Shown in pieces: positions 5,845 to 63,364 of a DNA stretch of 64,000 bases (positions within the stretch are counted from its first letter, which is position 1; the number at the start of each line of letters is the position of its first letter). The translations under genes and the position numbers were made by a program. The stretch is from Candidatus Deferrimicrobium sp. (lineage in GTDB: Archaea; Asgardarchaeota; Lokiarchaeia; Helarchaeales; HEL-GB-A), in the NCBI GenBank assembly GCA_035531115.1, contig DATKTP010000172.1:18965-82964 (forward strand). The letters are read 5' to 3'. Under the pieces are notes generated by a model. That model did no database searches. It saw only the letters and a program-made list of their open reading frames with translations, and was not told where the DNA came from.

Positions 5845-5884
5845 ATCAAATGTATCCTCTCTTTTTTATAAGAAAGGAATTGAT

Positions 5885-7135
5885 TTAGGGATACAACCCT
5901 CGAACTCTAATTGCTTCCGCGATGCGACCCACAGCAATCATGTAGGCTGCCGTTCGGAGCGGGACATTTTTCTGCTTTGCCAGATTATAGACTTCATGAA
6001 ATGCTTTTGTAATGTGCATCTTCAATTCTTGATTCACGCGTTCAAAATCCCAGAAATATGAGTGTAGATCCTGCACCCATTCAAAATAACTTACAACAAC
6101 TCCACCGGCATTTGCTAAAATATCTGGAACTACTGTGATTCCCTTCTTTTCAAGGATATTATCTGCTTCTGGTGTTGTTGGACCATTGGCTCCTTCCATT
6201 ACTATTTTTGCTTTGACTTGTTCTGCATTTTTCTTGGTAATTTGATTCTCAATTGCAGCAGGAATGAGAATATCACATTCAAGAGCAAGGAGGTCCTCAT
6301 TGGTTATCGGTTTTGTCCTAGGAAAATTAATGATTGAACCCGTTTCTTTTTCATGCTGCTTTAAAAGAACTGGATCAATCCCTTCAGAATTGTAAATTCC
6401 CCCCTTGATATCACTGATACCAATTATCTTACAATTCATCTCCTTTGCAAGAATATCCGCGACTACTGATCCCACGTTTCCGAATCCTTGCACTGCAACA
6501 GTTGTTTGTGCGTCTAACTTTATTCCTAATTTTTTACAGATCTCAGCAGTTACATAAGCTAAACCCCTTCCTGTTGCTGTTTCACGACCTTCAGAACCTC
6601 CAATAGAAATGGGCTTTCCAGTAACTACTCCTAGAGTTGTTTCACCGACACCCATTGAATAAGAATCCATAATCCATGCCATAATTTGTTTGTCTGTGTT
6701 CATATCAGGCGCAGGAATATCTTTATGCGCACCTAGAATATTTATTATTGCATAGGTATATCTCCGCGTTAAGCGTTCCAGTTCGCTTCTGGATAACGTT
6801 TTGGGATCACATACTATTCCTCCTTTGGCACCTCCATATGGTAATCCAACAACCGCGCATTTCCAGGACATCCACATACTCAGGGCTTTCATTTCATCCA
6901 TTGTGACTTTAGGAGAATAGCGAATTCCCCCTTTGGTGGGACCGAGCGCGCTATTATGTTGCGCTCGAAATCCCTCGAACACCTTCACAGATCCATCATC
7001 CATCTTAATGGGAATGGATACGACTGCAATTTGCATACAGTATTTTAGGATTTCATGAATCCAAGGTTCTAAGTTTAATTGGTTCGCAGCAATTTCGAGT
7101 TGTTTTAAGGCAATCTTGTACGGATTTTCCTCCAT
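5885..7135 (-). CDS. gdhA: glutamate dehydrogenase (Glu/Leu/Phe/Val dehydrogenase family)
   Basis: KGGIRYSP...GLPYGGAKGG motif, Rossmann GFGNVG. Confidence 0.9.
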   Translation of the reverse strand: MEENPYKIALKQLEIAANQLNLEPWIHEILKYCMQIAVVSIPIKMDDGSVKVFEGFRAQHNSALGPTKGGIRYSPKVTMDEMKALSMWMSWKCAVVGLPYGGAKGGIVCDPKTLSRSELERLTRRYTYAIINILGAHKDIPAPDMNTDKQIMAWIMDSYSMGVGETTLGVVTGKPISIGGSEGRETATGRGLAYVTAEICKKLGIKLDAQTTVAVQGFGNVGSVVADILAKEMNCKIIGISDIKGGIYNSEGIDPVLLKQHEKETGSIINFPRTKPITNEDLLALECDILIPAAIENQITKKNAEQVKAKIVMEGANGPTTPEADNILEKKGITVVPDILANAGGVVVSYFEWVQDLHSYFWDFERVNQELKMHITKAFHEVYNLAKQKNVPLRTAAYMIAVGRIAEAIRVRGLYP

Positions 7136-7277
7136 TTCATCTCACCATATAAATTCTCGAATTAAACTTCCTTAAATTTCTAATGTTTCACAGTTATAAA
7201 ATATTCAAACAAAACCCATAAAATAATCTATGTATTGCTATTAATTATTTTCAGAACTCTCTTTAATTTTTGCATAG

Positions 7278-23745: not shown

Positions 23746-25416
23746 ATGGCACAATTAAGTGGAACCCCAGTTCTTATTTTAAGAGAAGGAACAGAACGGT
23801 CTCGTGGAAAGGATGCACAACGGAACAATATTTCAGCAGCGAAAATTATTTCAGAGGCAGTGCGAACAACGCTCGGTCCGAGAGGGATGGATAAAATGTT
23901 AGTTGACAGTCTAGGCGATGTAACCATTACGAACGATGGCGCTACCATTTTAAAGGAAATCGATGTCCAGCACCCTGCCGCAAAATTAATGGTCGAAATT
24001 GCGAAGACGCAAGACCAAGAAGTCGGTGATGGTACGACATCTGCAGTTGTGCTCGCCGGCGAACTGCTCAAGAACGCCGAGGAATTACTGGAATCTAAGA
24101 TTCATCCAACAACCATCGCGGCGGGTTTTAAGAAAGCAGCCGCGAAGGCGAGGGACATTCTAACTAGTATGGCCATAGAGGTCGATATCAACAGCAATGA
24201 TATCAATAAGGCTGTGATGACAAGCTTGAATAGCAAGGCAATCCGCGGATTCAAAGAGAAATTCGCCAAAATTGCGGTTAATGCAGTGCATGCCGTGAAA
24301 GAAAAGCGCGCTGGTAAATGGTTCGTCGATCTCGATCAGATCCAGATTCAGAAAAAGCGGGGCAAGAGTCTCGCGGAAACTGAAATGATTGACGGAATCG
24401 TGATTGATAAGGAAATTGTCCATACCGACATGCCCAAGAGTTTAAAGAATGCAAAAGTCGCGTTACTCGATTTGGCATTGGAAATCAAGAAAACCGAGTT
24501 CGATTCTGAAATCAGGATCACGGATCCAACGCAGATTCAAGCATTCCTTGATGAAGAGGCACGAATGGTGAAAGCCTTTGTTGATAAACTCAAAGAGGTC
24601 GGTGCGACGATGGTTTTTTGCCAGAAAGGAATCGATGACGATGCGCAGCATTTCTTAGCTGTAAATGGAATGAGTGCGGCCCGACGAGTCAAGAAATCGG
24701 ATATGGAGAAGCTCCAACGTTCAACCGGGGCAATCATAGTTATGAACATCAAAGATCTCTCACCCCAAGATTTAGGGACCGCTGAACTAATAGAAGAACG
24801 AAAAATTGGCGATGATAAAGTAATATATATTACAGGTGCAAAACAATTGAAATCGGTGAGTATTGTGATTCGTGGAGGCGTAGAACATGTCGTTGATGAA
24901 GCAGAACGAGGAATTCATGATGCACTCTGCGTAGCGAAAGATATCATTCAAGAAAATAAGATTGTAGGTGGCGGTGGAGCTAGCGAAGTTGAAGTTGCAA
25001 AACAACTGCGTGCTTATGCCGCACAAGTTGGCGGACGTGAGCAATTGGCAGTAGAAGCTTTTGCTGATGCTATTGAAATCATACCAAAAACTTTAAGCGA
25101 AAATGCTGGTCTGGATCCAATTGATATCCTCGTCAAACTTCGCGCGAAACACGAATCAGACGGAAAAAATATCGGCATTGACGTTTTTGATGGCGAAGTG
25201 AAAGACATGATCCAAGCAGGCATTACTGAACCTTTAGTGGTGAAGTTACAGGCAGTGAAAACCGCAGCTGAATCAGCGAGCATGATTATTAGAATTGATG
25301 ATGTAATAGCCGCTAGGGCATCCCCAGGTGGACCCCCAGGCGGTGGAATGCCACCAGGTATGGGCGGCATGCCACCAGGTATGGGTGGCATGGGAGGATA
25401 TCCCGGGATGATGTAA
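23746..25416 (+). CDS. thsA: thermosome subunit (group II chaperonin)
   Basis: [18 protein letters not shown], equatorial ATP-binding motifs GDGTTS; C-terminal [10 protein letters not shown] tail. Confidence 0.95.
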
Positions 25417-25423
25417 GGAGGTT

Positions 25424-27082
25424 ATGGAAAAAATGTCACAATTAACAGGAACCCCAGTTCTTATTTTAAGAGAAGGCGCAGAAAGATCGCGCGGGCGAGA
25501 TGCCCAATCGTCGAACATTATGGCAGCGAAAGTAATTGCTGAATCGGTTAGAACATCGCTCGGCCCAAAGGGCATGGATAAAATGCTTGTTGACTCCTTT
25601 GGAGACGTAACTATCACGAACGATGGTGCAACAATCCTCAAGGAAATGGATGTGCAACATCCTGCTGCAAAAATCTTGGTTGAAGTCGCAAAGACCCAAG
25701 ATGACGAAGTGGGAGATGGTACGACAACCGCCGTAATCCTCACAGGCGAACTCTTGAAAAATGCGGAAGAATTGATTAAAGAAAAAATTCATCCTACCAT
25801 TATTGTTGAGGGCTATGGGAAAGCGATGGAAAAAGCCATTGAAATCTTGGATTTACTGGCAAAGGACATTGGCGTTGATAATAGAGATATCCAGAAGAAA
25901 GCAGCTATAACTGCGATGTCAAGCAAAGTAGTCGGTGAATCTTCAACATTTCTTGCAGATATTGCTGTAAAAGCTATTAATACCATTAAAGAACAGAAAG
26001 AAGGCAAGTGGGAAGCCGATTTAGATAACATTAGTATCCAGAAGAAACAAGGTGAGAGTGTAGAAGATTCCTCTCTTATTACAGGACTCATTATCGACAA
26101 AGAAATCGTGCATTCAGGCATGCCAAAAAGCATTGAAAATGCTAAAATAGCTTTACTGGAAACTGCTTTAGAAATCGAAAAGACAGAATTCGATGCAAAG
26201 ATTTCAATTACGCAAGTTGATCAAATGCAAGCATTCCTTGCACAAGAAGAAACAATGCTTCGTAATATGGCCAATAAAATCAAAGAATCTGGCGCAACAG
26301 TTGTCTTATGTCAAAAGGGAATTGATGATCTCGTGCAACACTTCTTATCAAAGGCAGGAATTGCGGCAATCAGGCGGATTAAAAAATCGGATATCGAAAA
26401 ATTGTCGAAAGCTACTGGTGCAAGAATAATCACCAACATCGACAAATTAGCTGCAAGTGATTTAGGTGCGGCTGGTTTAATCGAAGAACGGCGAATTGGG
26501 AATGATTTAATGGTTTTCGTTGAAAAATGCTCCGACCCCAAAGCAATTAGCATCCTCATTCGTGGAGGCACTCAGATGATCGTGGATGAAGCCGATCGGG
26601 CCTTGCATGATGCACTATGCATAGTACGGAATCTAATTAGTGAACCCAAAGCCGTCATTGGTGGAGGCGCACCTGAAATTGAAGTAGCAAAAGGTTTGCG
26701 GGCTTATGCAGAGACGCTATCCGGTCGAGAACAACTAGCGGTTCAAGTATTTGCCAAAGCAGTCGAAAGTATCCCACGAACATTAGCAGAGAATGCAGGT
26801 ATGGATCCAATTGATGCCCTCGTTGAACTTCGCTCGAAGCACGGAGCTGGCCAAACGACCGTTGGAGTCGATGTGATGGCTGGCAAAATTGGCGATTTGA
26901 AAGATAAGGCAATCTGGGAACCAGTAATAGTGAAGAAACAAGCAATTAAATCAGCAGCTGAAGCAGCCCAAATGATTCTACGCATTGATGACGTCATCTC
27001 CTCTTCAAAAGGTGGTGGCGGCGGTCCTCCTGGTGGTCCTGGTGGTCCAGGTGGTATGGGCGGCATGGGCGACGAAGATTAA
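25424..27082 (+). CDS. thsB: thermosome subunit, second paralogue
   Basis: Same motifs as thsA; 7-nt spacer with SD GGAGG; about 60% identical to upstream copy. Confidence 0.95.
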
Positions 27083-27086
27083 ACTC

Positions 27087-27112
27087 CTCTCTTTTTTTCT
27101 TTTTTTTTTTTA
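27087..27112 (+). terminator. oligo-T tract after thsB
   Basis: ctctctttttttcttttttttttttaat immediately after stop. Confidence 0.4.
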
Positions 27113-27177
27113 ATAGTTGAAGATTTGTTCAGAAATAGTGGTTTGAAAAGGGTTAGCGAAGGTGGAATGAACTTCAT

Positions 27178-27900
27178 ATGAAGGAAGAGAAATCCTCTGA
27201 AGTGAAGAAGGAACCCGTAAAAAAGACCGAATCTACTGAATTTGAGGAAGTAGATGTTGGTTTAGAGGATAATATGAATTCAAGTTCACACATTGATAAT
27301 GAAGTTAATAAAACTGAAGTAAAACCTCCAATTCCCGAAGAATGGAAAGGGAAATCGGAGGAAGAAATTGCTCTTCTCTGGGAAATTCAAGATCTGAAGA
27401 AAAAGTTAGAAGATACGAAGAAAGACTGGTTTGATAAATATGCGCGACTCCAAGCAGAGTTTGAGAATTTCCAAAAACGAAACTTAAAAGAGAAGGAAAC
27501 CTTTACTACTTACGCGAATTCACAATTAATATCCAAGTTACTTCCGATATTGGATAGTTCTGAAATTATGTTAAAAAGTATAGAACCGAAACTCGAACCG
27601 AAGGAGTTTCAAGGAATTAAAATGATATTTAAAGAATTGTATGGGGTGTTTGAGAAAGAAGGCTTAACCCCTATCAAAGCGAAGGGAGAGGCTTTTGATC
27701 CCTTCGTTCATGAAATTCTTTGTGTAGAATGTACGGACGAGTGCCCTGATGAAACGATTCTTGAAGAATTTCAGAAGGGCTATAAGCTGAAAGATCGGGT
27801 ACTTCGTCCTTCAAAAGTAAAAATTGCAAAAAAGAAAATCCCTGAAGCGAAAAAAACAAATTCTGAATCAGAAGAAGAAAAAATAGTTGAAGATAATTAA
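27178..27900 (+). CDS. grpE: nucleotide exchange factor GrpE
   Basis: Acidic N-term, coiled-coil, C-terminal GrpE beta-domain pattern (FDPFVHEIL...). Confidence 0.8.
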   Translation: MKEEKSSEVKKEPVKKTESTEFEEVDVGLEDNMNSSSHIDNEVNKTEVKPPIPEEWKGKSEEEIALLWEIQDLKKKLEDTKKDWFDKYARLQAEFENFQKRNLKEKETFTTYANSQLISKLLPILDSSEIMLKSIEPKLEPKEFQGIKMIFKELYGVFEKEGLTPIKAKGEAFDPFVHEILCVECTDECPDETILEEFQKGYKLKDRVLRPSKVKIAKKKIPEAKKTNSESEEEKIVEDN

Positions 27901-27918
27901 TAAGAAAATAGAATAAAT

Positions 27919-29871
27919 TTGAGAGGTTTCAATAAAATGGCAAAAATAATTGGAATAGATTTAGGAACAAGTAATTCTGCAGCAGCAGTAATGATAGGTG
28001 GAAAACCTACTCTAATTCCGAGCGCAGAAGGTGTAAGCATTGCCGGAGGTAAAGCATTTCCTTCAGTAATTGCATTCACTAAGGATGGACAGCGTTTAAT
28101 CGGAGAACCAGCGCGTCGTCAAGCCGTTACTAATCCAGAGCGAACGATTACTAAGATAAAACGGAAAATGGGAACAGACTATAAAGTCAAAATCGATAAT
28201 ACAGACTATACCCCCCAAGATATATCGGCGATGTTACTCCGCAAGATTCGGGAAGATAGTGAAGCTTTCTTGGGTGAGCCTGTTAAACAAGCTGTAATAA
28301 CTACTCCTGCGTACTTCAACGATCGTCAGCGACAAGCGACTAAAGATGCAGGACAAATTGCAGGTTTGGAAGTGCTACGGATCATCAATGAACCAACCGC
28401 GGCTTCTTTAGCATATGGCCTCGATAAAGAAAAAAAGAACATAAAAATCGCGGTCTTGGATCTTGGTGGTGGAACCTTTGATGTGACCATGATGGAAATG
28501 GGTGAGGGTGTCTTCGAAGTCATTTCTACGAGCGGTGACACGCAATTGGGTGGCACTGATATGGATATTTTAATCGTCGATTTCCTTGTTGCTGAATTTC
28601 AACGAACGCAGGGCATTAACTTGAAAAATGACACAATGGCAATAGTGCGCTTAGCCGAAGCTGCTGAAAAAGCAAAAATTGAGCTTTCAACGACAGTAAA
28701 TTCCGAAATTAATCTCCCTTACTTAACTGCCGATTCAACTGGTCCTAAGCATATGACCTATACATTAACTCGAGCAAAACTTGAGGAACTAGTGGAATCA
28801 ATTCTTAATCGGTTAGATGGGCCAATCAAAGATGCGATAAAAGGTGCAAAATGGTCCCAAAATGAGATTGACAAGATTATATTAGTAGGTGGTCCGACCC
28901 GCATGCCATCCGTTCGTGAGCGATTCAAAAGAAATTTTGGAAAAGAACCTGAACGGGGAGTCGATCCAATGGAATGTGTTGCGATGGGTGCAGCAATCCA
29001 AGCTGGAGTTCTTGCAGGGGAAGTCAAAGATATTCTCCTACTTGATGTTACTCCATTGTCCTTGGGTGTAGAAACCTTAGGAAATGTTTTTACCAAATTA
29101 ATTGAACGCAATACCACCATTCCCACGAAAAAAAGTGAAATTTTCTCAACCGCATCAGATAATCAGCCCGCAGTTGAAATTCATGTCCTTCAAGGAGAGC
29201 GCCCACGGGCTTACGATAATATAACTTTAGGAAAATTCCATTTAGTTGGAATTCCTCCCGCACCTCGGGGCATTCCCCAGATTGAAGTATCCTTCGATAT
29301 TGATTCAAACGGGATAGTAAATGTTTCAGCGAAAGATTTAGGAACCGGTCGAGAACAAAAAATTACCATAACCGGAGGTTCCAAACTACCCGATGCGGAA
29401 ATTCAGAAGAAAATTAAAGAAGCAGAGCAGTTTTCAGAAGAGGATCGGAAATTCAAAGAAAAAGTTGAGATAAAAAATCAAGCTGATTCCCTTATCTATA
29501 ATACAGAGAAACTAATTAAAGAACAAGGGGAAAAAGTCGATGCTGTTTTGAAGGAAAATGTGCAAACTGAGATTGAAAAACTTAAGAAAGCTTTAGAATC
29601 AGATGATACCGTACAAATAAAGCAAGGGGTTGAAGATCTTACGCAAGCAATGCATAAGGTCGCGGAAAAGATTTATCAACAGCCCGGTGCTGGTCCATTT
29701 CCCGGTGGTGTCCCTCCTGGCGCAGGCCCCTTTCCCGGAGGAGTTCCTCCCGGTGGATATCCTGGCGAACCTGGTGCCCAAGGTTCTTCCAAACAAGCCC
29801 CTACAGATGAAAACGTTGTGGATGCCGATTATGAGATAGTTGACGAAGATGAGGATGAGAAAAAAGATTAA
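27919..29871 (+). CDS. dnaK: Hsp70 chaperone DnaK
   Basis: [29 protein letters not shown]; C-terminal [12 protein letters not shown] x2. Confidence 0.95.
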
Positions 29872-29907
29872 TTTTCCCGCTTCCTTTTTTTAGATGTGGT
29901 CTAACTA

Positions 29908-31020
29908 ATGTCAGAAGAAAAAAAACGCGACATCTATGAGATATTAGGCGTTTCGAAAAATGCAACGAAGGACGAAATCAAGAAGGCATTCCGTCAGCTT
30001 GCTTTAAAATATCACCCTGATAAGAACCCTGATAATCGAAAATGGGCTGAAGAAAAATTTAAAGAGGTCGCTGAAGCCTATGAAATACTTAATGATAACG
30101 AAAAACGACAATTATATGATCGATTTGGCTGGGATGGCGTAAGGCGTAGCGGATTCTCTGGCTTTAGCAATGTCGATATCAGTGATATTTTTAGCCATTT
30201 CGCTGATTTCTTAGGTGGTAGTGGTGGTGGATTCGGTGATATTTTTGGTGACCTTTTCGGATTCGGAGGTCATAGAGGTCGACAGCATGTAACACGGGGC
30301 GATGACATCCGCTATGATCTAGAACTCACCTTAGAGGACGCCTTTAAAGGAAAGAAAATCGAAATCGAAATACCAAAACATATATCATGTGAAGTATGTC
30401 GTGGGTCTGGCGCAGAATCCCCTTCTGATATAAGTAACTGCTCCGCTTGCGGTGGATCAGGGCAAAGTAAACAAATTCGCTCCACTCCTTTTGGTCAAAT
30501 GATCAATGTTACTACGTGTGGTAGGTGTCGCGGAAATGGAAAAATAATTACCAAAAAGTGTAAGGAGTGCAATGGCACTGGACGGATTCGAAAAGTGCGA
30601 AAAATTTCACTTGACCTACCACCGGGCATCGATACAGGAAACCGCATGCGTGTTTCAGGAGAAGGTGAAGCCGGTCAGCAAAATGCCCCCTCAGGCGATC
30701 TCTATATAATTATCCACATCAAACCCCATCCAATTTTTGAACGACACGAATCCCATCTCGTTTGTGAGCGCAAGATCACCTTTAGTCAAGCCGCGCTAGG
30801 AGATAAATTAGAAATTAATACGTTAGATAGTGCCACGAAATTAAGTATCCCTCCCGGAACCAAGAGTGGTACTATATTTCGCTTAAGAGGACAGGGAATG
30901 CCTGAATTCCGAGGGTACGGCCGGGGCGATTTATTATGTAAAGTAGATATTGAGGTTCCTAAAAGATTATCGAAAGAGCAAAAACAAATGGTTGAAAAAT
31001 TAAAAGAGCTTGGATTGTAA
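29908..31020 (+). CDS. dnaJ: Hsp40 co-chaperone DnaJ
   Basis: J-domain YHPDKN, G/F-rich linker, four CxxCxGxG zinc repeats. Confidence 0.9.
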
Positions 31021-36613: not shown

Positions 36614-36844
36614 ATGGATGAAGAAATTCTTCAGGTTTTAAAAGATTTATCCTTTATCAACGCGGTCATCGCTACAGAACTGATCCGAATTGCAGAAAAT
36701 ACCGCCATTATGGCAAAAGGTCCGCAAGTTGTGGAAAAGTGTGCTGCAGAACATCAACAAATCAGTGAAAAAATTCTTGAATTGGTCGAATCTTATAAAC
36801 CAAATATAATAGAAATTCTCAAAAAGCACGTGCTGAAACATTAA
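36614..36844 (+). CDS. hypothetical small protein
   Basis: 76 aa ORF. Confidence 0.35.
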   Translation: MDEEILQVLKDLSFINAVIATELIRIAENTAIMAKGPQVVEKCAAEHQQISEKILELVESYKPNIIEILKKHVLKH

Positions 36845-36911
36845 CAAACATTTCAAAAACTTTTTATTTTTTCCTTTTTTCTAATCCAATAAAAAGCGTT
36901 AGGGATGAAAG

Positions 36912-37121
36912 ATGAGCATCGAACGAAGAAGACGTCTGAAAAAGAGATCCAAAGGCGAAACGAGTCAAAAAGAAACCAAACAAAAGAAATCTCGGAGACT
37001 TATTGTTCCTAAAAAGGAATTTACGGAAGAAGAAATTAAAGCGAGAAAAAAAGCCCAACGCATTAGTATGTTCGATAAGAAAAAGAATCTTCATAAAAAG
37101 ATCACCGAAGGATCTTCATAA
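36912..37121 (+). CDS. highly basic small protein (K/R-rich)
   Basis: 69 aa, about 40% Lys/Arg, nucleic-acid-binding-like composition. Confidence 0.4.
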   Translation: MSIERRRRLKKRSKGETSQKETKQKKSRRLIVPKKEFTEEEIKARKKAQRISMFDKKKNLHKKITEGSS

Positions 37122-37155
37122 TCATTTCATAACCTTAATGTACTAAGAATCTATA

Positions 37156-38016
37156 TTGTTAATAGATGAGTTAAGTAAGAATTATTGTGATGATACAGTG
37201 ATTAGGGACATTTGGATAGTGGAAAAGGCAGGAGGTCGGTGTCTTTTTCATAGAACTTATGGGCCAATGGGTCTGGATCCTGATTTACTCTCGAGTTACT
37301 TAACTGGGATTAATACCTTTAGCGAGGCAGAACTGGGCGATACCGGTATTGAATGCATTGAAATGGGAAACATGAAATGGGTCTATATAAATTGGGAAAA
37401 TAAATTACTTTTAGTGGCAGCCGCCGATAAATTTGAGGACCCCACTGTATTGCACCATCAGTTAGACGTTGTTTGCCAGCACTTCCTAGACCATTTCAAG
37501 ATTGATAGGGACTTCTTATCTAAATGGTCGGGGAATGTAACCATGTTTTCTAAATTTGGTCCGAATATAGATGAGTTAATTAACGATTGGAAGCAAGTCT
37601 CAAAGGTTACCGATATCGCAAAAAAGATGAATCTCCTTGAGGTATATCAACAGATTTTTCATGCGTTTGCTAAAGTTGTTCCAACGATACGACCCGAAGG
37701 GCGAAAAGAATTAGCTGAGAGAATGGCGGAACTAAAAACAAGTTTTCCCCCTTACTTTGAAAAAGTTACCTATGGAAATGCTGGGTGGGATATCCTTTCA
37801 GCAGATGTAACCGATCCTCGATGCAAGGAATATAAATTAAGAGAGGAATTACAAAATTTATTAAATGCCTTTGTTTCCGAAATGAAATCTATTTTTAAAG
37901 AAGAGTTGTTTTTTGAAATTGCGAAGAAATTAGTTTATCCTAAATTATTATCCGACTGGAGCCGTATTCGAGAACTAGAAATAGATGAAGCGCTACTCCA
38001 AATTTTCTTGATTTAA
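37156..38016 (+). CDS. longin-like (SNARE-like superfamily) domain protein with helical C-terminal region
   Basis: N-term beta-alpha-beta-beta-alpha pattern IWIVEKAGGRCLF / LLSSYLTGINTF / LLLVAAADKFEDP..LHHQLDVVCQHF, comparable to longin/sigma-adaptin YLVLCEAAFPK... Confidence 0.4.
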   Translation: MLIDELSKNYCDDTVIRDIWIVEKAGGRCLFHRTYGPMGLDPDLLSSYLTGINTFSEAELGDTGIECIEMGNMKWVYINWENKLLLVAAADKFEDPTVLHHQLDVVCQHFLDHFKIDRDFLSKWSGNVTMFSKFGPNIDELINDWKQVSKVTDIAKKMNLLEVYQQIFHAFAKVVPTIRPEGRKELAERMAELKTSFPPYFEKVTYGNAGWDILSADVTDPRCKEYKLREELQNLLNAFVSEMKSIFKEELFFEIAKKLVYPKLLSDWSRIRELEIDEALLQIFLI

Positions 38017-38122
38017 ATGGTCGGGGAAATAAACCATAATTTTAATGCGAAGTCTTTTACTGTCCCTTACTGATCCCAAAAAGCGATAAAAAAAATAGTT
38101 TCTTGAATTCAGTTTTGAGAAC

Positions 38123-38485
38123 TCACCAAAACCAAACCGCACCCATGATATACTTCCAATTTCCTGATTTTTTGCTCAATATTAGTGGAGATCCGATGCT
38201 TTTTGCACCTTCTGCATCAATTTCAACTTCGGCTCTATCGCCAGAAATACTAATAGATTTTATTGCGAATTTTTTATTCCATTTCTTTCCTAAGAGGGAA
38301 ATATTTGATTTAAAGGATTTTTCAAATTCTTCTGCAGTCTCTGTGTAACTCGATCCCATCTGTTCCTTGTTGCGTTCCCACATACCTTTGAAATCTGCGT
38401 TTTTAAGATACCATTTAGTGTCTCCTTTTTAGAGCGCCTTGATATATTCTTCCGCAAACTTTCTTACGTCATCTTCTTCCGTCAT
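38123..38485 (-). pseudogene. DUF4878-like small protein interrupted by in-frame TAA
   Basis: MTEEDDVRKFAEEYIKAL*KGDTKWYLKNADFKGMWERN... continuous in one frame; TAA at 38429-38431 where Lys is expected. Confidence 0.45.
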
Positions 38486-38734
38486 ACTATTATCACTTTT
38501 TAAATTAAATCGTAATTGTTGGTAAATGTTTATGAAAATTTATTTTAAAATATTAGTCCCTAAAACTACTTATTGAAATCGTATAACTTTTCTTTTCCAT
38601 TAAAGAAGCATTGAGATTTTCTATAATTACTTCTAATAATGAATGGAAAGATTATGTCTCAGGATATGACTTAATCAATAAAAAAAAAGGTTAATACTTC
38701 TAATAGATGAAGTCCAACTCCAAATTTTCTTACT

Positions 38735-39568
38735 CTAGAGTAAAATCCTATTAAAATTATCAGTCAGTAGCTCTGCAATCGGACCAATTGAAGAATGTGC
38801 CTCTGTTATTGCATAATAATAGAAGGGGACTGCGCCTTCCCCAAATTCCCCCAGAATATCTGAAATTTGAACTTTTACGCCAGGGTTGGTCATCACGACT
38901 AACTTGGGCTCCAATCCGGGCAGCGCTATGTTATTATAAAGAAGCTCCCCGTCTTGGAGAATGGATCCTTTACGTCCGATGTTACTTAAATAAATCGCAA
39001 TTTCTTCACGAGACATCCCATGCGAAAAGAGAATAGAGTTATCAAATGAAGTGATAAAGCAGGAGTGAACCTCCTCTGGAAACTTTTCCTCTATAAGGTA
39101 GTCTGCCGCTATTCGTAATTGCTCTTTTTTATTGTAAATTATATTTTCTGCAACTGCATCGTTCAATAAACCCTCAATGAATTGCCGCTCTTCATCGGAA
39201 ATATTTGGGACTTTTCCGACGCGGATCATATGTTCATAGCGAAATAATATTTTACTGTATATCCACTGTATTTTGTAATGTACCATTTGGTGAAATTGGT
39301 AGGGATCTGTAAAGCAAAGGACCATATATTCGCCAATAAAACTATAAACTCCGTCTATTCCATAAGGATCATCGGGAAATTCAGTAGGTAGGAACCTAAT
39401 ATAGGAAATTTCCTGTTTATAATTGCTGGCAAAGGTATGGAGTGCTGAAAGAAACCCCGCAATCAAAATGGGATTCCCCTCATGGAAGGCGGAAAGTTTC
39501 TCAGACCACGCATCCAGAAACAACGGAATCCCTGTCTTGCTCTGGATCGCTACGCCAAGTATTGCCAT
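38735..39568 (-). CDS. protein with two longin-like domains
   Basis: ILGVAIQSKTGIPLF / ILIAGFLSALHTFAS / YMVLCFTDPYQFHQMV; second unit FITSFDNSILFS...LVVMTNPG. Confidence 0.4.
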   Translation of the reverse strand: MAILGVAIQSKTGIPLFLDAWSEKLSAFHEGNPILIAGFLSALHTFASNYKQEISYIRFLPTEFPDDPYGIDGVYSFIGEYMVLCFTDPYQFHQMVHYKIQWIYSKILFRYEHMIRVGKVPNISDEERQFIEGLLNDAVAENIIYNKKEQLRIAADYLIEEKFPEEVHSCFITSFDNSILFSHGMSREEIAIYLSNIGRKGSILQDGELLYNNIALPGLEPKLVVMTNPGVKVQISDILGEFGEGAVPFYYYAITEAHSSIGPIAELLTDNFNRILL

Positions 39569-39741
39569 TTTTATTTTCAGTTCCTTGTCCTATTCTTTAA
39601 ATTGTGCGATAGAAATTATTAGTGCTTGATTATTATCATTATGATTTATAAATCCGTAAAGGGTGTGTAATGATTATTAGATATAGGTAAAAACAAAAGT
39701 TATTTATCTCTTTTCACGATACTCAATAAAGGTACATAATT

Positions 39742-40770
39742 ATGACGGAAAAAATGGATACGCCCGCCGAAGACAATGAACAAGCGCTGGAAATTAATCG
39801 AGAGGAATTATACGCTCAATTGGAGAAATGGCAAGCCGCACGTAAGTTCAACCAACAGTTGCAATATCAGTACAGCCAAGAAGTGACCAAATGGCGCGAA
39901 ATGAGAGATAAGATAAAAGACGAGATCAATACGATTCGAGAAGACGCGCTCAAGGAAAAGGCAATTCGGGACAAAATAAATAACGAAGTAGCGAAGTTAA
40001 AAGAAGATCGTTCTTCCGCAAATGTTCAGATTGCTGATCTAAAACTAAAGCGTAATTCTGCTTGGGAACAAATTAAAAATATTCGATCTAAGCTTCGATC
40101 ACTTATGGAACTTAAGAGAGATGAAAAAAAGAAACTAAAATCGGTCTATCCTTTAATGCGGCGTTTTGAAGAGCTCGATTGGACAATAATGACTAAATCC
40201 ATGCCTTTTGAAAAGGAACAAACTATGATGAACGAAATAGAGCAGATAATCAGCGAAATTTCAAAACAAAAACAGGAATTGGAAATAGAGTATGATGATG
40301 TTATCATTGATTTTGATGAAGCTAAAAAACAGATTGAGGAACTTAAAGAAGTTGCGCAACAATATCACGATCTAATGATCCAAACCGTGCAAGATGGTGA
40401 GAAAATTCACGAACGGATCCTCCATGATGTGAAAGAAAGTGAGCCCCACCATCAAGCGATGCTGGAAAAATTTGCCCAAATTGATGAACTGAAAAAAGAA
40501 GAGGAAGCGGCGCATCAAAAAATGGTTGAAAACTTGAAAGAACTGGATCTCCTGCGGAAAGGGATGGATGAAATTTATCAGGAACTTCGCGCGATTGAAA
40601 AGAAATTTACCTACCTGAAAAACCTCGAAGCCCTCCAAAAACTCAAAGAACAAGAGAAGATCCTTGACAAGAAAACCGAAGAAGCCTTGGCTAAGTATAA
40701 AAGTGGCAAAAAACTTACTATGGACGAATTCAGCCTTTTACTTAAAAAAAATTTAATCAAAACTGGTTGA
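39742..40770 (+). CDS. coiled-coil protein (E/K/Q-rich)
   Basis: 342 aa, heptad-like charged repeats throughout. Confidence 0.55.
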   Translation: MTEKMDTPAEDNEQALEINREELYAQLEKWQAARKFNQQLQYQYSQEVTKWREMRDKIKDEINTIREDALKEKAIRDKINNEVAKLKEDRSSANVQIADLKLKRNSAWEQIKNIRSKLRSLMELKRDEKKKLKSVYPLMRRFEELDWTIMTKSMPFEKEQTMMNEIEQIISEISKQKQELEIEYDDVIIDFDEAKKQIEELKEVAQQYHDLMIQTVQDGEKIHERILHDVKESEPHHQAMLEKFAQIDELKKEEEAAHQKMVENLKELDLLRKGMDEIYQELRAIEKKFTYLKNLEALQKLKEQEKILDKKTEEALAKYKSGKKLTMDEFSLLLKKNLIKTG

Positions 40771-40851: not shown

Positions 40852-41901
40852 TTACTGATACGAAGGAATATTTCCGAAAAAGAAATCTATAAGATCAATT
40901 GCTGATTTAAATTGATTCAGTTCAAGTACATCTTGAATTAATAGGTTGTTAAATCGGTTTTCAAATTCAATTATGAATTTTTTCAAGCTATCCCGAAGAT
41001 GTTTGGAAGATTTGGAGGTTATGAGCCCTACCGTCGTATAGTTAGCTTTTATAAAGATTAAAATTCCTTGCGAAAGCTTCATTTCCTCCAATTCACCGAT
41101 ATGCAATACTTCGATACTCATCTGTTGCAACGCTGAAAGTAATCCCGCAAGCAAATCTCCATCAATTTCTGATTTCTCGAATTGATGATCATAAATTGAG
41201 ATGCCTATTTTACTATGAATAACAGTCAATCTATGAACCCTATACGGTAATATGTATAGAAGCTCTGGATTTTTCACAAGCACGTATACAAGAATTAAAT
41301 TCATAATCGCCGCATAAAAACCCGAAAGAAAAAATCCTAAACCATAAAAAATCCAGCTAAAAATATAGCTCAAACAGCCTAGAGAAACTGTTATGATGGT
41401 TAAAAATAATGAGAGCTTTTTCAGATTTTTCGGAGCCTTCAAAGTGGAGCGAACTAAAAATAAAAACAGAAAAATAAGGTAAAAATCCATTAAAAGATCA
41501 TAAAAAGCTGCAAATGGTATTGTGGGAAGTATATAACTCCGAAAAATAGTAGTATAAATTAATAAAGCTCCTATTGCACTAACAATGCTTATCTTAATGA
41601 CATTAATGGATTCTCGGGTAACATTATCAATAAAAACTAAAAATGATAAAATGGCAATTACTGTGAATATATAGACGGTGCTGTATAAAGGCCAGTTAAT
41701 GTAATACATAAAATAATTAATTAAATATACCGTCCCAAGTAAGAAATTCTGCATTGCAAATGCACCCCATGAAAGGGCTGCATAAAGAAACGGTTGTACA
41801 TTTTTTGTTTTCCACTTCCAAATAAGAAGGATTGTACAAATCACAAAGACAGAAAAAAGCGTATATGATGTTAGGACCACTTGGATATTATAATCCATCA
41901 A
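40852..41901 (-). CDS. seven-TM membrane protein with C-terminal cytoplasmic longin-like domain
   Basis: About 7 hydrophobic helices in residues 1-215; C-term IGISIYDHQF...DLLAGLLSALQQMS...GILIFIKANYTTVGLITSK. Confidence 0.5.
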   Translation of the reverse strand: MMDYNIQVVLTSYTLFSVFVICTILLIWKWKTKNVQPFLYAALSWGAFAMQNFLLGTVYLINYFMYYINWPLYSTVYIFTVIAILSFLVFIDNVTRESINVIKISIVSAIGALLIYTTIFRSYILPTIPFAAFYDLLMDFYLIFLFLFLVRSTLKAPKNLKKLSLFLTIITVSLGCLSYIFSWIFYGLGFFLSGFYAAIMNLILVYVLVKNPELLYILPYRVHRLTVIHSKIGISIYDHQFEKSEIDGDLLAGLLSALQQMSIEVLHIGELEEMKLSQGILIFIKANYTTVGLITSKSSKHLRDSLKKFIIEFENRFNNLLIQDVLELNQFKSAIDLIDFFFGNIPSYQ

Positions 41902-42058: not shown

Positions 42059-42832
42059 TCATGGTCCAAGTCCAATGCCTGGCCATCCAACGGTCATGTG
42101 CCATCCGATTTTATCGACAAAGATGTACATACTTGAAAGTGTTCCTCCGAGCCCATGCGAAATCGAAACCGTCAGCATATTGGGCGTCTCATAAAAGTTC
42201 CATGCCCAAAACGTGCCCGATATAAACGTGAAAGCAACCAATGGGAAATTGAAGAGGTGATAACTGCCAAATATCACCCCTGTAAAGAGGGAAATGAAAA
42301 TTCTATTTCGCCGGTCATTTCCTGGAAAAATTTTTCGTAGCCGGACATGGATGAATGAGAGAAAGAGCACCTGCTGTAGCAGTCCCCACCCAATATAATA
42401 AATGAATTGGGCAATGAAATCGATGTATATATTTTCAAAACCGAACACCTCCAGCGAAAATCCCCCACCTTCCGGCGTCGTAATCGTGCCTATTATAAGC
42501 GCAATAAGAAAAATGCTCGCCACCATGCTGGATGTTAGAACCAGAAGCACATCCTTTGCACTTTTTTTTAGATTATCAGTACGAATAAAAAGCGTCTTCC
42601 AACTTCCAAACCCTCGCTCTGCACAGGTATCTTTATGGAGATATTGAGAGAAAAACAAGATATAAAGTAATAAAATCCCGCCCAGAATATACGCACTAAG
42701 AAGCAGGGGAAAAATATGTTCAAACAGTGCCACTAATAATATGATATAAAAATATACAAATGTAACGATGATTATATCAAATGCATGCCCTTTTCGTGAT
42801 TGCCAGAAACTCTTTTTCTCATTGTTTTTCAA
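42059..42832 (-). CDS. CPBP-family (CAAX protease/Abi-like) membrane protein with substituted catalytic motifs
   Basis: Motif 2 FGSYHL present; motif 1 reads LLQQVLF (EE->QQ, R->L); motif 3 SHGLGG lacks N/D. Confidence 0.5.
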   Translation of the reverse strand: MKNNEKKSFWQSRKGHAFDIIIVTFVYFYIILLVALFEHIFPLLLSAYILGGILLLYILFFSQYLHKDTCAERGFGSWKTLFIRTDNLKKSAKDVLLVLTSSMVASIFLIALIIGTITTPEGGGFSLEVFGFENIYIDFIAQFIYYIGWGLLQQVLFLSFIHVRLRKIFPGNDRRNRIFISLFTGVIFGSYHLFNFPLVAFTFISGTFWAWNFYETPNMLTVSISHGLGGTLSSMYIFVDKIGWHMTVGWPGIGLGP

Positions 42833-42895: not shown

Positions 42896-43372
42896 TTAGA
42901 TTGGAAGCGGCTTAGTTTTTCGGTAGATGAATAAGACAAATAACCCAAGTAGTGCAAGAACTAAGAGAGGGTTAAAACCAGGAATGGCAGGTCCCTTATT
43001 TTCAGTTAGTATATAGATTTGCACAGATACACCGCCGGGATTATGGAAATGAGCCCAATGGGTGCCATTTTCTTTTGCAGTGAATTCATAGGAGCCGCCA
43101 ACTGAATCGAGTATGGTATGAAAGACCCCCCCACTCGCATTTTCAAAGGAAACATCAACTGTGCCTCCTGAAAGGATGTTCCACCTAACATACCACCGAT
43201 CACCGGGGTCTAGATCCGAGCCTCGTCCATATGATCCGCCCGGACCAATCGAAGTGGTTATTTCCCATGCTAGACCGTTGACTGGAACCATTAAGACCGA
43301 AAATTGACATATACCAAGTAGAACTAAGCAAAGCAGAAGCTTGGAAGAAATCGTTTTTTGGTGCATGCCCAA
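42896..43372 (-). CDS. small secreted protein with PGF-CTERM anchor
   Basis: Signal peptide; C-terminal AIPGF + TM + RKTK. Confidence 0.55.
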   Translation of the reverse strand: MGMHQKTISSKLLLCLVLLGICQFSVLMVPVNGLAWEITTSIGPGGSYGRGSDLDPGDRWYVRWNILSGGTVDVSFENASGGVFHTILDSVGGSYEFTAKENGTHWAHFHNPGGVSVQIYILTENKGPAIPGFNPLLVLALLGLFVLFIYRKTKPLPI

Positions 43373-60226: not shown

Positions 60227-63200
60227 ATGAGTGAGAAAAAGAAGAATTATAAATTAATTATTGGGATATTAATAATTTTTATTCTTCCTTTTTCTCTTCT
60301 GGTTGGTTTAATCTTATATAAACCCCCTCACCATTTTCAAACGTCTTATATTAATTCTATTATAAGTGAAACTAATAATTATGCTCTAACTTTCCAAAAT
60401 CAAGATGGTCTGTTCGTAGAGCCGGCTATTGATGTGATATATAACACAGTAGCAACTTATTTCTATTTGAATGGCACAACCCCCTTTCTATTCTCAGACC
60501 TCAACCTTTCTTACATCTCGTATTTTGCTTTAACTCGCCAAAACCTAGATGGGAGCTTTTCTGATTTTGCAGGTTCTGGGGATATGGTTTCAACGTTCAA
60601 GGCACTTATGACCATTAATTGGACTATTCCTGAAGAATTAAGCACGAATCCTGTAAAAATGAATTTGACGTACACATTTTTAAATGAATCTCGCAATTCA
60701 GATGGAGGTTATAGCATTCGCCCTCCCTTTGAACAACCAGCTGAATTTAATTTTGATATTGGTTATGGAATTCCTCTGGAGAATTTTTCAAAGGAAATCT
60801 CTTATATGGAATATACTCATGAAGCAGTCAAAACTTTTTCTCTTCTGGGGATAACTCCTCCAAACGCTCAAACGACTACCTTTTTTATTAATACTACATG
60901 TCGGCGTATTTTCATTTTTGAGCCAAACTTTCCTGCAGGTTTTGCTGCAACAAAATATACCCTCTCCCCTGATCTTCATAGCACATATCATGGTGTCGCT
61001 GCCTTGAGCGATTTAGGGTATTCAAAGAGCGATATCGATCTTTTCGGCAACATCACTCGTTTCATTGAACTCTGCTGGAATTCCACGGATGGTGGTTTCT
61101 CGATGTATCCTGGCAATGTCTCAGATGTTACCTCCACCTATTACGGAGTCGTAGCACTCACGCTCTTGGATTATAATTTTTCAACTTCTCTTGTCATAAA
61201 CCGCACTAAAATCATTGAATTTGTTGAAAACTCCCAAAATTTAGATGGAGGTGTTGGCGCACGAAATGGTCTTCCCTCGAGTTTCCAAAGTGCGCACCAC
61301 GCTGCGGCCACTATAAAATTGTTGGAATATCTGCTCGTTCCAGCAGATGTTACACCTCTTTTTTATTGGTTAACTGATCATAAGGCGCAAAATGGCTTAT
61401 ATGGAGAAAAACTCGTTGAAGCTCAATACTGGGGAATTAGATCGGCTTTCCTTGCAAACAATGAAGGGTCTTTAAATAGAAGTTCGATTTCTGCTTTTCT
61501 AATAAATTGCCAGAATCCTAATGGAGGTTTCGGATCGGTTCCAAATTCGACTTCTACGGTTGTAGATACGTATACTGCCATAGAATCATTATATCTCCTT
61601 AATAATTTATCACATATAAATACTCTCGCTGCAACTCAGTGGTTACAGTCTTTACAGACTGAAGAAGGCGGCTTTGCTTCTATAATTGGATTGAATGCCT
61701 TCTTACAGTCCTATGCGCCGCTGTATGGTTTTATTGCTGATTTGTTATTAAATGATAGCCGTCCTTCCAGTGAGGCAACCTTTTTTGCACTTGCAGCTTT
61801 AAGTAGATTAGGTGCATCGCCATTAAATAGCACATCACTACGCTTCTGGCTTCTCTCTATTCAAAACGCAGATGGCGGATTCCCATTTGCCCTCGGTATC
61901 CGAAGCGATGCTGTTTCTTCTTTTTATGCAGTACAATCTTTAGCACTTATTCGAGACGAACCTTTTTCAACGCTCTCTTGCATTCAATTCTTGAAAGGGT
62001 GCCAAGTAAGCGATGGGGGATTTACTTTCTATCCGATGATCGGTGAATATCTTAATGTTAGCTACTTATTCATATCGTATGTGGCGGCCAGAGCGATCTA
62101 TTTGCTTGCTACCCAACCCGCCGATGTATTTGGCGCGATGGATTGGTTTTTAACCTGCAAGGATGATTACACCTCTGGTTATAGCGACACCCCCTATTTT
62201 GGATCAGACTTGCGTAACTCTCCTTATCTAATCGATATCGTTCGAGAATTGAATATTGATCAATCGTTCGATCCCACTTCTTGGATACAAACGATTCTCT
62301 GGCTCCTTATAATCGAACTTGCCGCCTTAAGTGCCTTTGGAGTGGTGAAACTCAGTCGAAAATACCGGAAAGATATTGTTGGAATGAAGCGTATACAACT
62401 GAATATTGAAGAGTATCCCGCCGTCCATGTGAAAGGACTTACCATTAAGGTAGGAAAGAAGGTCATTTTAGAAGATGTAAATATGACATTACAGCATGGT
62501 GAAGTCTTAGGAGTTGTTGGTGAAAGCGGTGCAGGAAAATCTACATTTGTCAAGAGTATTTTGGGCACAAAAGGTTCGAGTGGCGAAATATTCCTATATG
62601 GGTTTGATATCCGAAAAGAGAAAAAGCGATTAAAACCTATAATTGGTTATGTACCTCAAGATCTTAGTAAAATTTATGAAAATTTCACGGTCATGGAAAA
62701 CCTCCTGCATTTTGGCAAACAATACGGCTTGGAAGAAAAAGAAATTATTCAACGTGGTGGTAAAATACTCCAAGATCTAGGGATTTTTGATAAGCGTGAT
62801 AGTTTAGTTTCAGCGCTTTCAGGTGGACAACGACGAAGGGCGTCTATTGCAGTCGGTATGATACACCAACCAACCCTTTTTATCCTTGATGAGCCTACTT
62901 CAGGGCTGGATCCCATAATCCGCGAACAGTTATGGATTACATTGCTCAATCTTGCTGAAATCCATAATACCACTCTCATTGTGATCACCCATTATCCCGA
63001 AGAGAGTAAATTTTGTACCAAAGTAGCTATATTCGGACGTAAAAGAGGTCTTATCGATTTCGGCCCCCCTCTGGAATTAATAAACAATCTTCCCGGGTCC
63101 GGTCGCGCTCTCGATGTTAATCTAAAAGAATCTATTGCGCCAATTTCTGTTGACTTATTACCGATTCTTCAAAAAGTTCCACAAATTGAATTTTTTCTCG

Positions 63201-63364
63201 AAGAGAAGAAAGGATCCCGCTATCGTATCTTCTCGAATCTCCCTGCAAAAACGCTACGAGCGATTCTTATACAAGCCCTTGGCACACCTCTTATTGAGAT
63301 AACTCAAAGTGAAGCGACTCTTGTTGATTATTTTAGAATAAAATCGTTGGAGGTTAAGGACTAG
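60227..63364 (+). CDS. fusion protein: TM - extracytoplasmic alpha/alpha-toroid (prenyltransferase/terpene-cyclase-like) repeats - TM - ABC ATPase
   Basis: N-terminal TM; eight or more QNxDGGF-type repeats (RQNLDGSF, SRNSDGGY, NSTDGGF, SQNLDGGV, CQNPNGGF, TEEGGF, IQNADGGF, CQVSDGGF); second TM; GESGAGKST, LSGGQRRRASIA, ILDEPTSGLD. Confidence 0.7.
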   Translation: MSEKKKNYKLIIGILIIFILPFSLLVGLILYKPPHHFQTSYINSIISETNNYALTFQNQDGLFVEPAIDVIYNTVATYFYLNGTTPFLFSDLNLSYISYFALTRQNLDGSFSDFAGSGDMVSTFKALMTINWTIPEELSTNPVKMNLTYTFLNESRNSDGGYSIRPPFEQPAEFNFDIGYGIPLENFSKEISYMEYTHEAVKTFSLLGITPPNAQTTTFFINTTCRRIFIFEPNFPAGFAATKYTLSPDLHSTYHGVAALSDLGYSKSDIDLFGNITRFIELCWNSTDGGFSMYPGNVSDVTSTYYGVVALTLLDYNFSTSLVINRTKIIEFVENSQNLDGGVGARNGLPSSFQSAHHAAATIKLLEYLLVPADVTPLFYWLTDHKAQNGLYGEKLVEAQYWGIRSAFLANNEGSLNRSSISAFLINCQNPNGGFGSVPNSTSTVVDTYTAIESLYLLNNLSHINTLAATQWLQSLQTEEGGFASIIGLNAFLQSYAPLYGFIADLLLNDSRPSSEATFFALAALSRLGASPLNSTSLRFWLLSIQNADGGFPFALGIRSDAVSSFYAVQSLALIRDEPFSTLSCIQFLKGCQVSDGGFTFYPMIGEYLNVSYLFISYVAARAIYLLATQPADVFGAMDWFLTCKDDYTSGYSDTPYFGSDLRNSPYLIDIVRELNIDQSFDPTSWIQTILWLLIIELAALSAFGVVKLSRKYRKDIVGMKRIQLNIEEYPAVHVKGLTIKVGKKVILEDVNMTLQHGEVLGVVGESGAGKSTFVKSILGTKGSSGEIFLYGFDIRKEKKRLKPIIGYVPQDLSKIYENFTVMENLLHFGKQYGLEEKEIIQRGGKILQDLGIFDKRDSLVSALSGGQRRRASIAVGMIHQPTLFILDEPTSGLDPIIREQLWITLLNLAEIHNTTLIVITHYPEESKFCTKVAIFGRKRGLIDFGPPLELINNLPGSGRALDVNLKESIAPISVDLLPILQKVPQIEFFLEEKKGSRYRIFSNLPAKTLRAILIQALGTPLIEITQSEATLVDYFRIKSLEVKD

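Follow-up and report, generated by a model that had tools for sequence, protein, structure and literature searches.

The question raised by this locus is what kind of protein is encoded at 40852-41901 on the reverse strand of the 64,000 nucleotide stretch of DNA analyzed here (the window), and what that protein might bring to the membrane. A sequence-only reading had described it as a membrane domain of seven helices fused to a longin-like domain, and had suggested that this 7TM-longin protein acts as a receptor or anchor for two soluble paralogues encoded nearby, at 37156 and 38735. The features discussed below are collected in Table 1. The ORF as first delimited opens with a TTG at 41901 and encodes 349 aa. 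Since the identical public protein and all of the homologues begin at MDYN, the second codon of that ORF, the real gene most likely starts at the ATG one codon downstream. A total of 864 sequence clusters match the protein at E ≤1e-3, and the gene is therefore real and under selection.

Table 1. Features of the 7TM-longin gene and the related segments of two neighboring genes (positions are those of the window).
Feature	Position	Strand	Description and basis
7TM-longin gene, most likely extent	40852-41898	(-)	348 aa from the ATG at 41898; HUY00027.1 (P0001) is 100% identical, 348 aa
Seven-helix TM domain, predicted	41272-41901	(-)	Residues 1-210 of the 349-aa ORF; N-out, C-in; hydropathy, AlphaFold2 and K/R distribution
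Juxtamembrane linker, conserved	41239-41271	(-)	Residues 211-221; family consensus P-x-L-x-Y-I-L-P-F-K
Cytoplasmic longin-fold domain, predicted	40855-41238	(-)	Residues 222-349; b1 b2 a1 b3 b4 b5 a2 a3; AlphaFold2 and Foldseek
286-aa neighbor, N-terminal longin-like domain	37207-37509	(+)	Residues ~18-118; C-domain HMM and hhalign; context only
277-aa neighbor, N-terminal stretch matching b1-b2-a1	39404-39550	(-)	Residues ~7-55; HMM and hhalign; context only

The public record of this DNA (HUY00027.1, contig k141_2117572) carries the name Candidatus Deferrimicrobium sp., a bacterium. Genes in the window encode Nop5, fibrillarin, a CDP-archaeol synthase, thermosome subunits, an archaeal PolB and a Loki-CTERM protein. 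The Nop5 shares 74% identity with its counterpart in Helarchaeota Hel_GB_A, where the gene order is also conserved. Because of this archaeal gene content and the synteny with Hel_GB_A, the Deferrimicrobium label is doubtful; the contig has probably been misbinned or mislabeled, and the window is Helarchaeota-like.

Kyte-Doolittle hydropathy analysis of the 7TM-longin protein gave approximately seven hydrophobic segments between residues 7 and 209. When AlphaFold2 was supplied with nine close orthologues, the C-terminal domain was modeled at a pLDDT of only 52, and it was an alignment of 92 sequences, taken from the exhaustive profile search described below, that resolved this domain. With that alignment the model of the whole chain reached a pLDDT of 93.7 and a pTM of 0.88, and seven long helices were predicted at residues 4-33, 36-65, 70-96, 101-119, 131-155, 158-184 and 188-210, so that hydropathy and modeling both agree with the roughly seven hydrophobic helices that had been proposed for the N-terminal 215 or so residues. 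Since the model is confident over its entire length, it suggests that the helical bundle and the longin domain are held in a defined mutual orientation. Lysine and arginine residues cluster behind helices 1, 5 and 7 in the window's protein, and among 85 diverse relatives the mean number of K+R was 3.2, 2.1, 3.7 and 3.1 for the inner segments (loops 1-2, 3-4 and 5-6, and the region after helix 7), against 0.1, 0.2, 1.0 and 0.3 for the outer segments (the N-terminus and loops 2-3, 4-5 and 6-7). This positive-inside pattern is that of a protein with seven spans, its N-terminus outside and its C-terminus inside, and therefore places the longin domain in the cytoplasm, which is where the sequence-only reading had put it. 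Only 3-6 residues make up the N-terminus, and with its short outer loops the protein has almost no extracellular mass.

In the AlphaFold2 model the C-terminal domain (pLDDT 87-97) is built from strands at residues 222-229 and 235-240, a helix at 248-266, strands at 273-275, 280-285 and 289-295, and helices at 300-322 and 328-342. This bb-a-bbb-a-a order is that of the longin fold and not that of the roadblock fold. Roadblock domains begin with a helix ahead of b1 and end in one helix, while longin domains end in two. Only a 5-residue helix (212-216) precedes b1 in the model and two helices follow b5, and an assignment to the roadblock/LC7 proteins (MglB, LAMTOR) was rejected for that reason. 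In a Foldseek search of the PDB, the C-terminal domain matched longin and roadblock proteins nearly exclusively, including AP-2 sigma (6owo_S, E 6.4e-3), COPI zeta/delta, TRAPP Bet5/Trs23 (2j3t_C, TMt 0.62), Mon1-Ccz1 (5ldd), Fuzzy (9rs8_A), roadblocks of Prometheoarchaeum MK-D1 and LAMTOR; the roadblock proteins were secondary matches with shorter alignments than the longin ones. The probability of these matches was 1.00 and their TMt 0.45-0.64, with E values of only 6e-3 to 6e-2. At the level of sequence, the protein had no match in Pfam or NCBIfam, the curated Pfam longin families (Longin, Fuz_longin_1, Sybindin, Sedlin, Clat_adaptor_s and others) included, and a profile search of the PDB sequences found no longin, only chance-level matches to RAMP2, a BAR-domain protein and bacteriorhodopsin (E 0.5).

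The modest Foldseek E values, together with the failure of the sequence profiles to reach any longin family, could be taken to mean that the longin-like fold is an artifact of prediction and that the C-terminal domain is in fact of some other, unrelated alpha/beta type. We consider this extremely unlikely, in view of the high pLDDT over the domain, an order of elements that is exactly that of longins, and the finding that the best 46 PDB matches were all longin or roadblock folds. In addition, one member of the family (1 of 92 relatives, E 3.5e-3, below threshold) and the related 286-aa neighbor (E 4.6e-4, under the gathering score) independently gave weak matches to Fuz_longin_1. The C-terminal domain is thus assigned, from a confident predicted model with modest Foldseek E values, as a longin at the level of fold, and the proposed architecture of seven transmembrane helices followed by a C-terminal longin-like domain is borne out by the order of elements and the structural matches.

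The sequence-only reading had called for a database search for fusions of this kind. Homologue searches that relied on a word index returned only 9, 13 and 2 matches and thereby understated the size of the family, and a profile scan of genome contigs with the orthologue alignment gave no matches. An exhaustive profile search, by contrast, yielded 864 clusters (at 50% identity) at E ≤1e-3, 443 of them at E ≤1e-10, a large family with the same architecture. Among the best 150 of the 864 clusters, nearly all match over the full length of both domains; 110 of the 150 are 300-399 aa long, nearly all of these matching both domains, and 17 are of ~410-440 aa, the majority of which end in a tail of ~80 aa that is helical, acidic and conserved. 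The same 150 include two proteins of 628-629 aa (P0111 and P0129) in which a helical linker joins the 7TM-longin module to HisKA and HATPase_c domains, and which align over both the 7TM and the longin domains with an hhalign probability of 100%; they also include one protein of 676 aa (P0044) with a long extension containing a winged-helix match. The window's own protein contains no HisKA or HATPase_c domain by Pfam. Those members that carry organism names all come from Asgard archaea (three from Lokiarchaeota/Promethearchaeota, one each from Hodarchaeota and Sigynarchaeota), and the family is apparently Asgard-specific. No Pfam or NCBIfam family covers any of the 92 members, and we found no mention of the architecture in the searchable literature, including the texts of Liu et al. 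and Tran et al.; an unremarked entry in the asCOG tables is possible. Both parts belong to known kinds, Asgard longin domains on the one hand and prokaryotic seven-helix receptors with intracellular modules on the other, but their combination is undescribed in the searchable literature, Pfam and NCBIfam.

Conservation is distributed unevenly along the protein. Mean pairwise identity within the family is 18% for the transmembrane part and 33% for the longin domain, the most conserved part, in which many positions are >90% conserved among 85 diverse members. The linker residues P212, L218, P219 and F/Y220 are each likewise >90% conserved in those 85 members. Within the transmembrane part, conservation across the family is seen at D92, E97, K103, A156-P157 and L160-K161, all of them at the ends of TM3/4 and TM5/6 that face the cytoplasm, and no polar residue of the membrane core is conserved in the family alignment. 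Since the core lacks conserved polar residues and the protein has hardly any mass outside the cell, what the family conserves as a unit is the longin domain together with the cytoplasmic face. Combined with the high pTM, this suggests that the transmembrane part and the longin domain form one structural unit.

This pattern bears on the possibility that the bundle is itself the functional unit, as a transporter, channel or membrane enzyme of, for example, a PAQR- or rhodopsin-like kind, with the longin domain merely regulating it. The helical bundle did weakly resemble microbial rhodopsins in fold (E 0.06, TMt 0.44-0.51), as well as GPCR-, PAQR- and ceramidase-like proteins of viruses (E 0.02-0.7), but every one of these matches is non-significant, the membrane core contains no conserved polar or charged residue, and conservation is concentrated in the C-terminal domain rather than in the bundle. 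We therefore regard a bundle with an activity of its own as very improbable. An identity as a microbial rhodopsin was specifically rejected, because there is no lysine in the core of TM7 and lysine makes up ≤5% of any TM7 column among 85 relatives. A ligand-sensing role likewise finds no direct support, given the very short extracellular loops and a membrane core that is not conserved, and the bundle may be only an anchor.

The sequence-only reading had suggested as partners the two soluble proteins encoded beside it, which it described as paralogues carrying the same longin-like module. BLASTP of the 7TM-longin protein against both of them gave weak scores (E 0.04-0.1). An HMM of the C-terminal domain matched the 286-aa protein at E 2.2e-6 (residues 21-118) and the 277-aa protein at E 0.013 (residues 14-55), ranking them second and third of 357 ORFs in the window, and hhalign assigned them probabilities of 58% and 46%, respectively, compared with ≤1.9% for 46 other proteins of the window that were tested. 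The Hel_GB_A orthologue of the 277-aa protein matches the C-domain profile in the same region. These results indicate that the three proteins share a remotely related module and are distant relatives: the similarity claimed earlier holds at the level of profiles, but they are not close paralogues, and the BLASTP scores are not significant.

The gene order of the region was compared with that of three syntenic relatives, namely Helarchaeota Hel_GB_A (L006/L011, which gave identical matches) and two metagenomic relatives (L012 and L013). All three share with the window a block, 61-81% identical, that encodes an M20 peptidase, an Rce1-like protease, a coiled-coil protein, the 277-aa and 286-aa proteins, two small ORFs, PyrK, PyrD and Nop5. 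In each of them only 17-23 bp separate the frames of the abutting Rce1-like and coiled-coil genes, with no 7TM-longin gene in between. Conversely, orthologues with 69-73% identity to the 7TM-longin protein (L001, L007, L009) lie in three different neighborhoods unrelated to that of the window, eight more distant members (L003, L010, L014-L019) also occupy unrelated neighborhoods, and homologues of the soluble pair were found at none of these 11 other family loci. Because the syntenic relatives do without the 7TM-longin gene and the orthologues elsewhere do without the soluble pair, its adjacency to that pair is lineage-specific and, by the comparative evidence, not functional; it looks like a lineage-specific insertion beside a conserved block containing the longin pair. 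A functional tie to the adjacent Rce1-like protease was rejected on similar grounds, as the protease is retained in the syntenic relatives that lack the 7TM-longin gene.

The presence of three remotely related longin-like modules within 5 kb, and the frequent heterodimerization of longin and roadblock domains (Tran et al., PMC10933270), would fit a model in which the 7TM-longin protein anchors the 37156 and 38735 products by pairing through their longin domains into a membrane-bound complex. Against this stand the two sets of loci just described, the location of the genes on different strands and hence not in a single operon, and the uncorrelated phyletic patterns, and we judge such a complex to be very unlikely. 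The earlier proposal that the protein recruits these two neighbors thus receives no comparative support from synteny or from the other loci. Its more general part, that of a membrane receptor or anchor, fares better: a receptor or anchor that presents a longin domain remains the best reading of the protein, but not as an anchor for these particular neighbors.

The soluble pair belongs to a conserved block of its own at 36614-40770, made up of two small ORFs (36614-36844 and 36912-37121), the genes for the 286-aa protein (37156-38016) and the 277-aa protein (38735-39568), and the gene for a 342-aa coiled-coil protein (39742-40770). The order is kept in Hel_GB_A and the two metagenomic relatives at 56-71% identity, and the pair recalls heterodimeric longin complexes such as Mon1-Ccz1 and Fuzzy-Inturned. 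On the other side of the 7TM-longin gene, the Rce1-like CPBP intramembrane protease (42059-42832, reverse strand) adjoins a gene for a 158-aa secreted-type protein (42896-43372, reverse strand) with a C-terminal Loki-CTERM signal (19.7 bits; cut-off, 19.9) and an EMP24/GOLD-like match that is weak (E 0.013); this gene, like the 7TM-longin gene, is missing in the three syntenic relatives.

As to what the longin domain might present itself to, we tentatively favor, with somewhat less than even confidence, a membrane-embedded platform for signaling or recruitment whose cytosolic partner is most likely a small Arf/Rab/Rag-like GTPase. The last helix of the bundle runs through the conserved linker into the cytoplasmic longin domain. 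The variable bundle would fix the protein in the membrane and might respond to a membrane-borne or small-molecule cue, while the longin domain and the conserved loops on the cytoplasmic side would together make up the output face to which a cytosolic partner binds. That partner would be a separate protein in most members of the family, and in the rare fused relatives the same module is joined within one chain to a histidine kinase or a winged-helix domain. A small GTPase is our leading guess for the partner, which we infer by analogy, because nearly all characterized longin/roadblock platforms, including those that give the best fold matches, engage small GTPases. Among the PDB matches of the longin domain, GTPase-binding platforms prevail (TRAPP, Mon1-Ccz1-Ypt7, Fuzzy-Inturned-Rab23, the small AP/COPI subunits and Ragulator). 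Asgard genomes are rich both in longin/roadblock proteins and in small GTPases (PMC10933270, PMC4917890, bioRxiv 10.1101/2020.10.19.343400), and the small GTPases of Lokiarchaeum have no CAAX motifs, nor does that organism encode prenyltransferases (Dey et al., PMC4917890).

Gene neighborhoods were also examined for GTPases. At locus L018 (6001-8156) the gene for a 372-aa family member (P0158) lies 45 bp upstream of a gene, on the same strand, for a 330 aa protein in which a 158-aa N-terminal domain precedes an Arf-like domain (Pfam Arf, E 5e-30); the N-terminal extension does not match the longin C-domain profile. Of 12 family loci, only this one pairs a member with a GTPase in an operon-like manner. 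Two further loci have GTPase genes 4-5 kb away, so that 3 of the 12 have one within 6 kb, which by our estimate is about what chance would produce given the density of GTPase genes in these genomes. The 64-kb window contains no small GTPase gene, and the neighborhoods of family members are not conserved. A GTPase operon was accordingly rejected for this locus, there being none in the window and a single adjacent case elsewhere that is compatible with chance. A more specific proposal is that the 7TM-longin paralogues are membrane receptors for Asgard small GTPases, each recruiting, and perhaps activating as an exchange factor, its cognate Arf/Rab/Rag-like GTPase. We think this unlikely as it stands; if true, it would represent a prokaryotic coupling of receptor to G-protein and a forerunner of the way in which eukaryotes mark membrane identity.

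The fused relatives raise a different possibility, namely that the family consists of sensors and transmitters of prokaryotic type that operate without GTPases, with the longin domain acting in the manner of a PAS or GAF domain and the stand-alone members signaling to kinases or transcription factors. The existence of kinase-fused relatives does mean that the 7TM-longin module can serve as a signal input, and these relatives fit the Asgard fusions of longin domains with two-component modules described by Liu et al. (bioRxiv 10.1101/2020.10.19.343400). Longins have also been grouped with the PAS/GAF superfamily (PMC4917890), and a response regulator lies 5 kb from a member in L015. However, the histidine-kinase and winged-helix fusions are rare (3 among the best 150 of the 864 clusters), family members show no consistent adjacency to a kinase or regulator gene, and no conserved residues of a ligand-type pocket were found. 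We therefore hold a GTPase-independent transmitter to be possible but rather doubtful.

The putative recruitment platform can be compared with several known systems. The eukaryotic longin GTPase platforms (TRAPP Bet5/Trs23, Mon1-Ccz1, Fuzzy-Inturned/CPLANE, AP sigma and COPI zeta) share the fold and the order of elements, provide the best structural matches, and are cytoplasmic and act at membranes, as is predicted for the longin domain here. They show no similarity to the 7TM-longin protein at the sequence level, however, and they are soluble, reaching membranes by way of lipids, GTPases or adaptor subunits, whereas here a membrane domain is fused; we know of no eukaryotic longin GTPase platform with a fused polytopic membrane domain. 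Membrane-tethered platforms that position or regulate small GTPases include Ragulator, with roadblock dimers anchored by LAMTOR1, and the Streptomyces conservon, which combines a membrane sensor kinase, a roadblock protein and a small GTPase, and LAMTOR is among the Foldseek matches mentioned above. Both use a separate lipidated or membrane protein as the tether, but the 7TM-longin protein combines anchor and platform in one polypeptide. Longin SNAREs (Sec22, VAMP7, Ykt6) likewise carry a longin domain on a membrane-anchored protein, and viral synaptobrevins were among the weak fold matches of the 7TM-longin model. SNAREs differ in having the longin domain at the N-terminus, followed by a SNARE coiled coil and one C-terminal anchor, where the present protein begins with seven helices and lacks a SNARE motif.

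Prokaryotic 7TM receptors with diverse intracellular signaling modules (7TMR-DISM, PF07695) were reportedly described by Anantharaman and Aravind in 2003. These follow the same logic of a seven-helix module with a cytoplasmic output, sometimes a histidine kinase. Membership in that group was rejected, since the 7TM-longin protein has no extracellular domain of the DISMED type, its output is a longin domain, and the 7TMR-DISM_7TM model matched only one of 92 members, weakly (E 2.6e-3). The longin/roadblock proteins of Asgard archaea (Liu et al.; Tran et al., PMC10933270) occur in the same organisms, belong to the same fold superfamily and show the same tendency toward domain shuffling, with longin domains also fused to GTPases (Liu et al., bioRxiv 10.1101/2020.10.19.343400; Tran et al., PMC10933270).

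Eukaryotes use small GTPases together with longin/roadblock proteins to give membranes their identity, and Asgard archaea encode many proteins of both kinds. The 7TM-longin family therefore supplies concrete and abundant candidates for the point at which the Asgard longin/GTPase machinery contacts the membrane. Should the partner not be a GTPase, the family would still constitute an undescribed class of archaeal membrane signaling proteins, with variants coupled to histidine kinases.

Several further observations were made at this and related loci. At L001, a gene for a 563-aa protein with TIR and leucine-rich-repeat domains (5483-7174, reverse strand) lies ~800 bp upstream of a 70%-identical 7TM-longin orthologue, and that orthologue is immediately preceded by two closely packed, unannotated ORFs (107 and 100 aa). 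Within the window, 60227-63364 (forward strand) encodes a 1045 aa protein that is an unusual fusion of a prenyltransferase alpha-alpha toroid (E 6e-42) with an ABC-transporter ATPase (E 2e-28), and the gene adjoins two other ABC ATPase genes. At 23746-31020 (forward strand), two thermosome (Cpn60/TCP-1) genes are immediately followed on the same strand by a GrpE-DnaK-DnaJ operon of bacterial type, and the GC content of this region is 0.40-0.45, compared with ~0.36 in the rest of the window.
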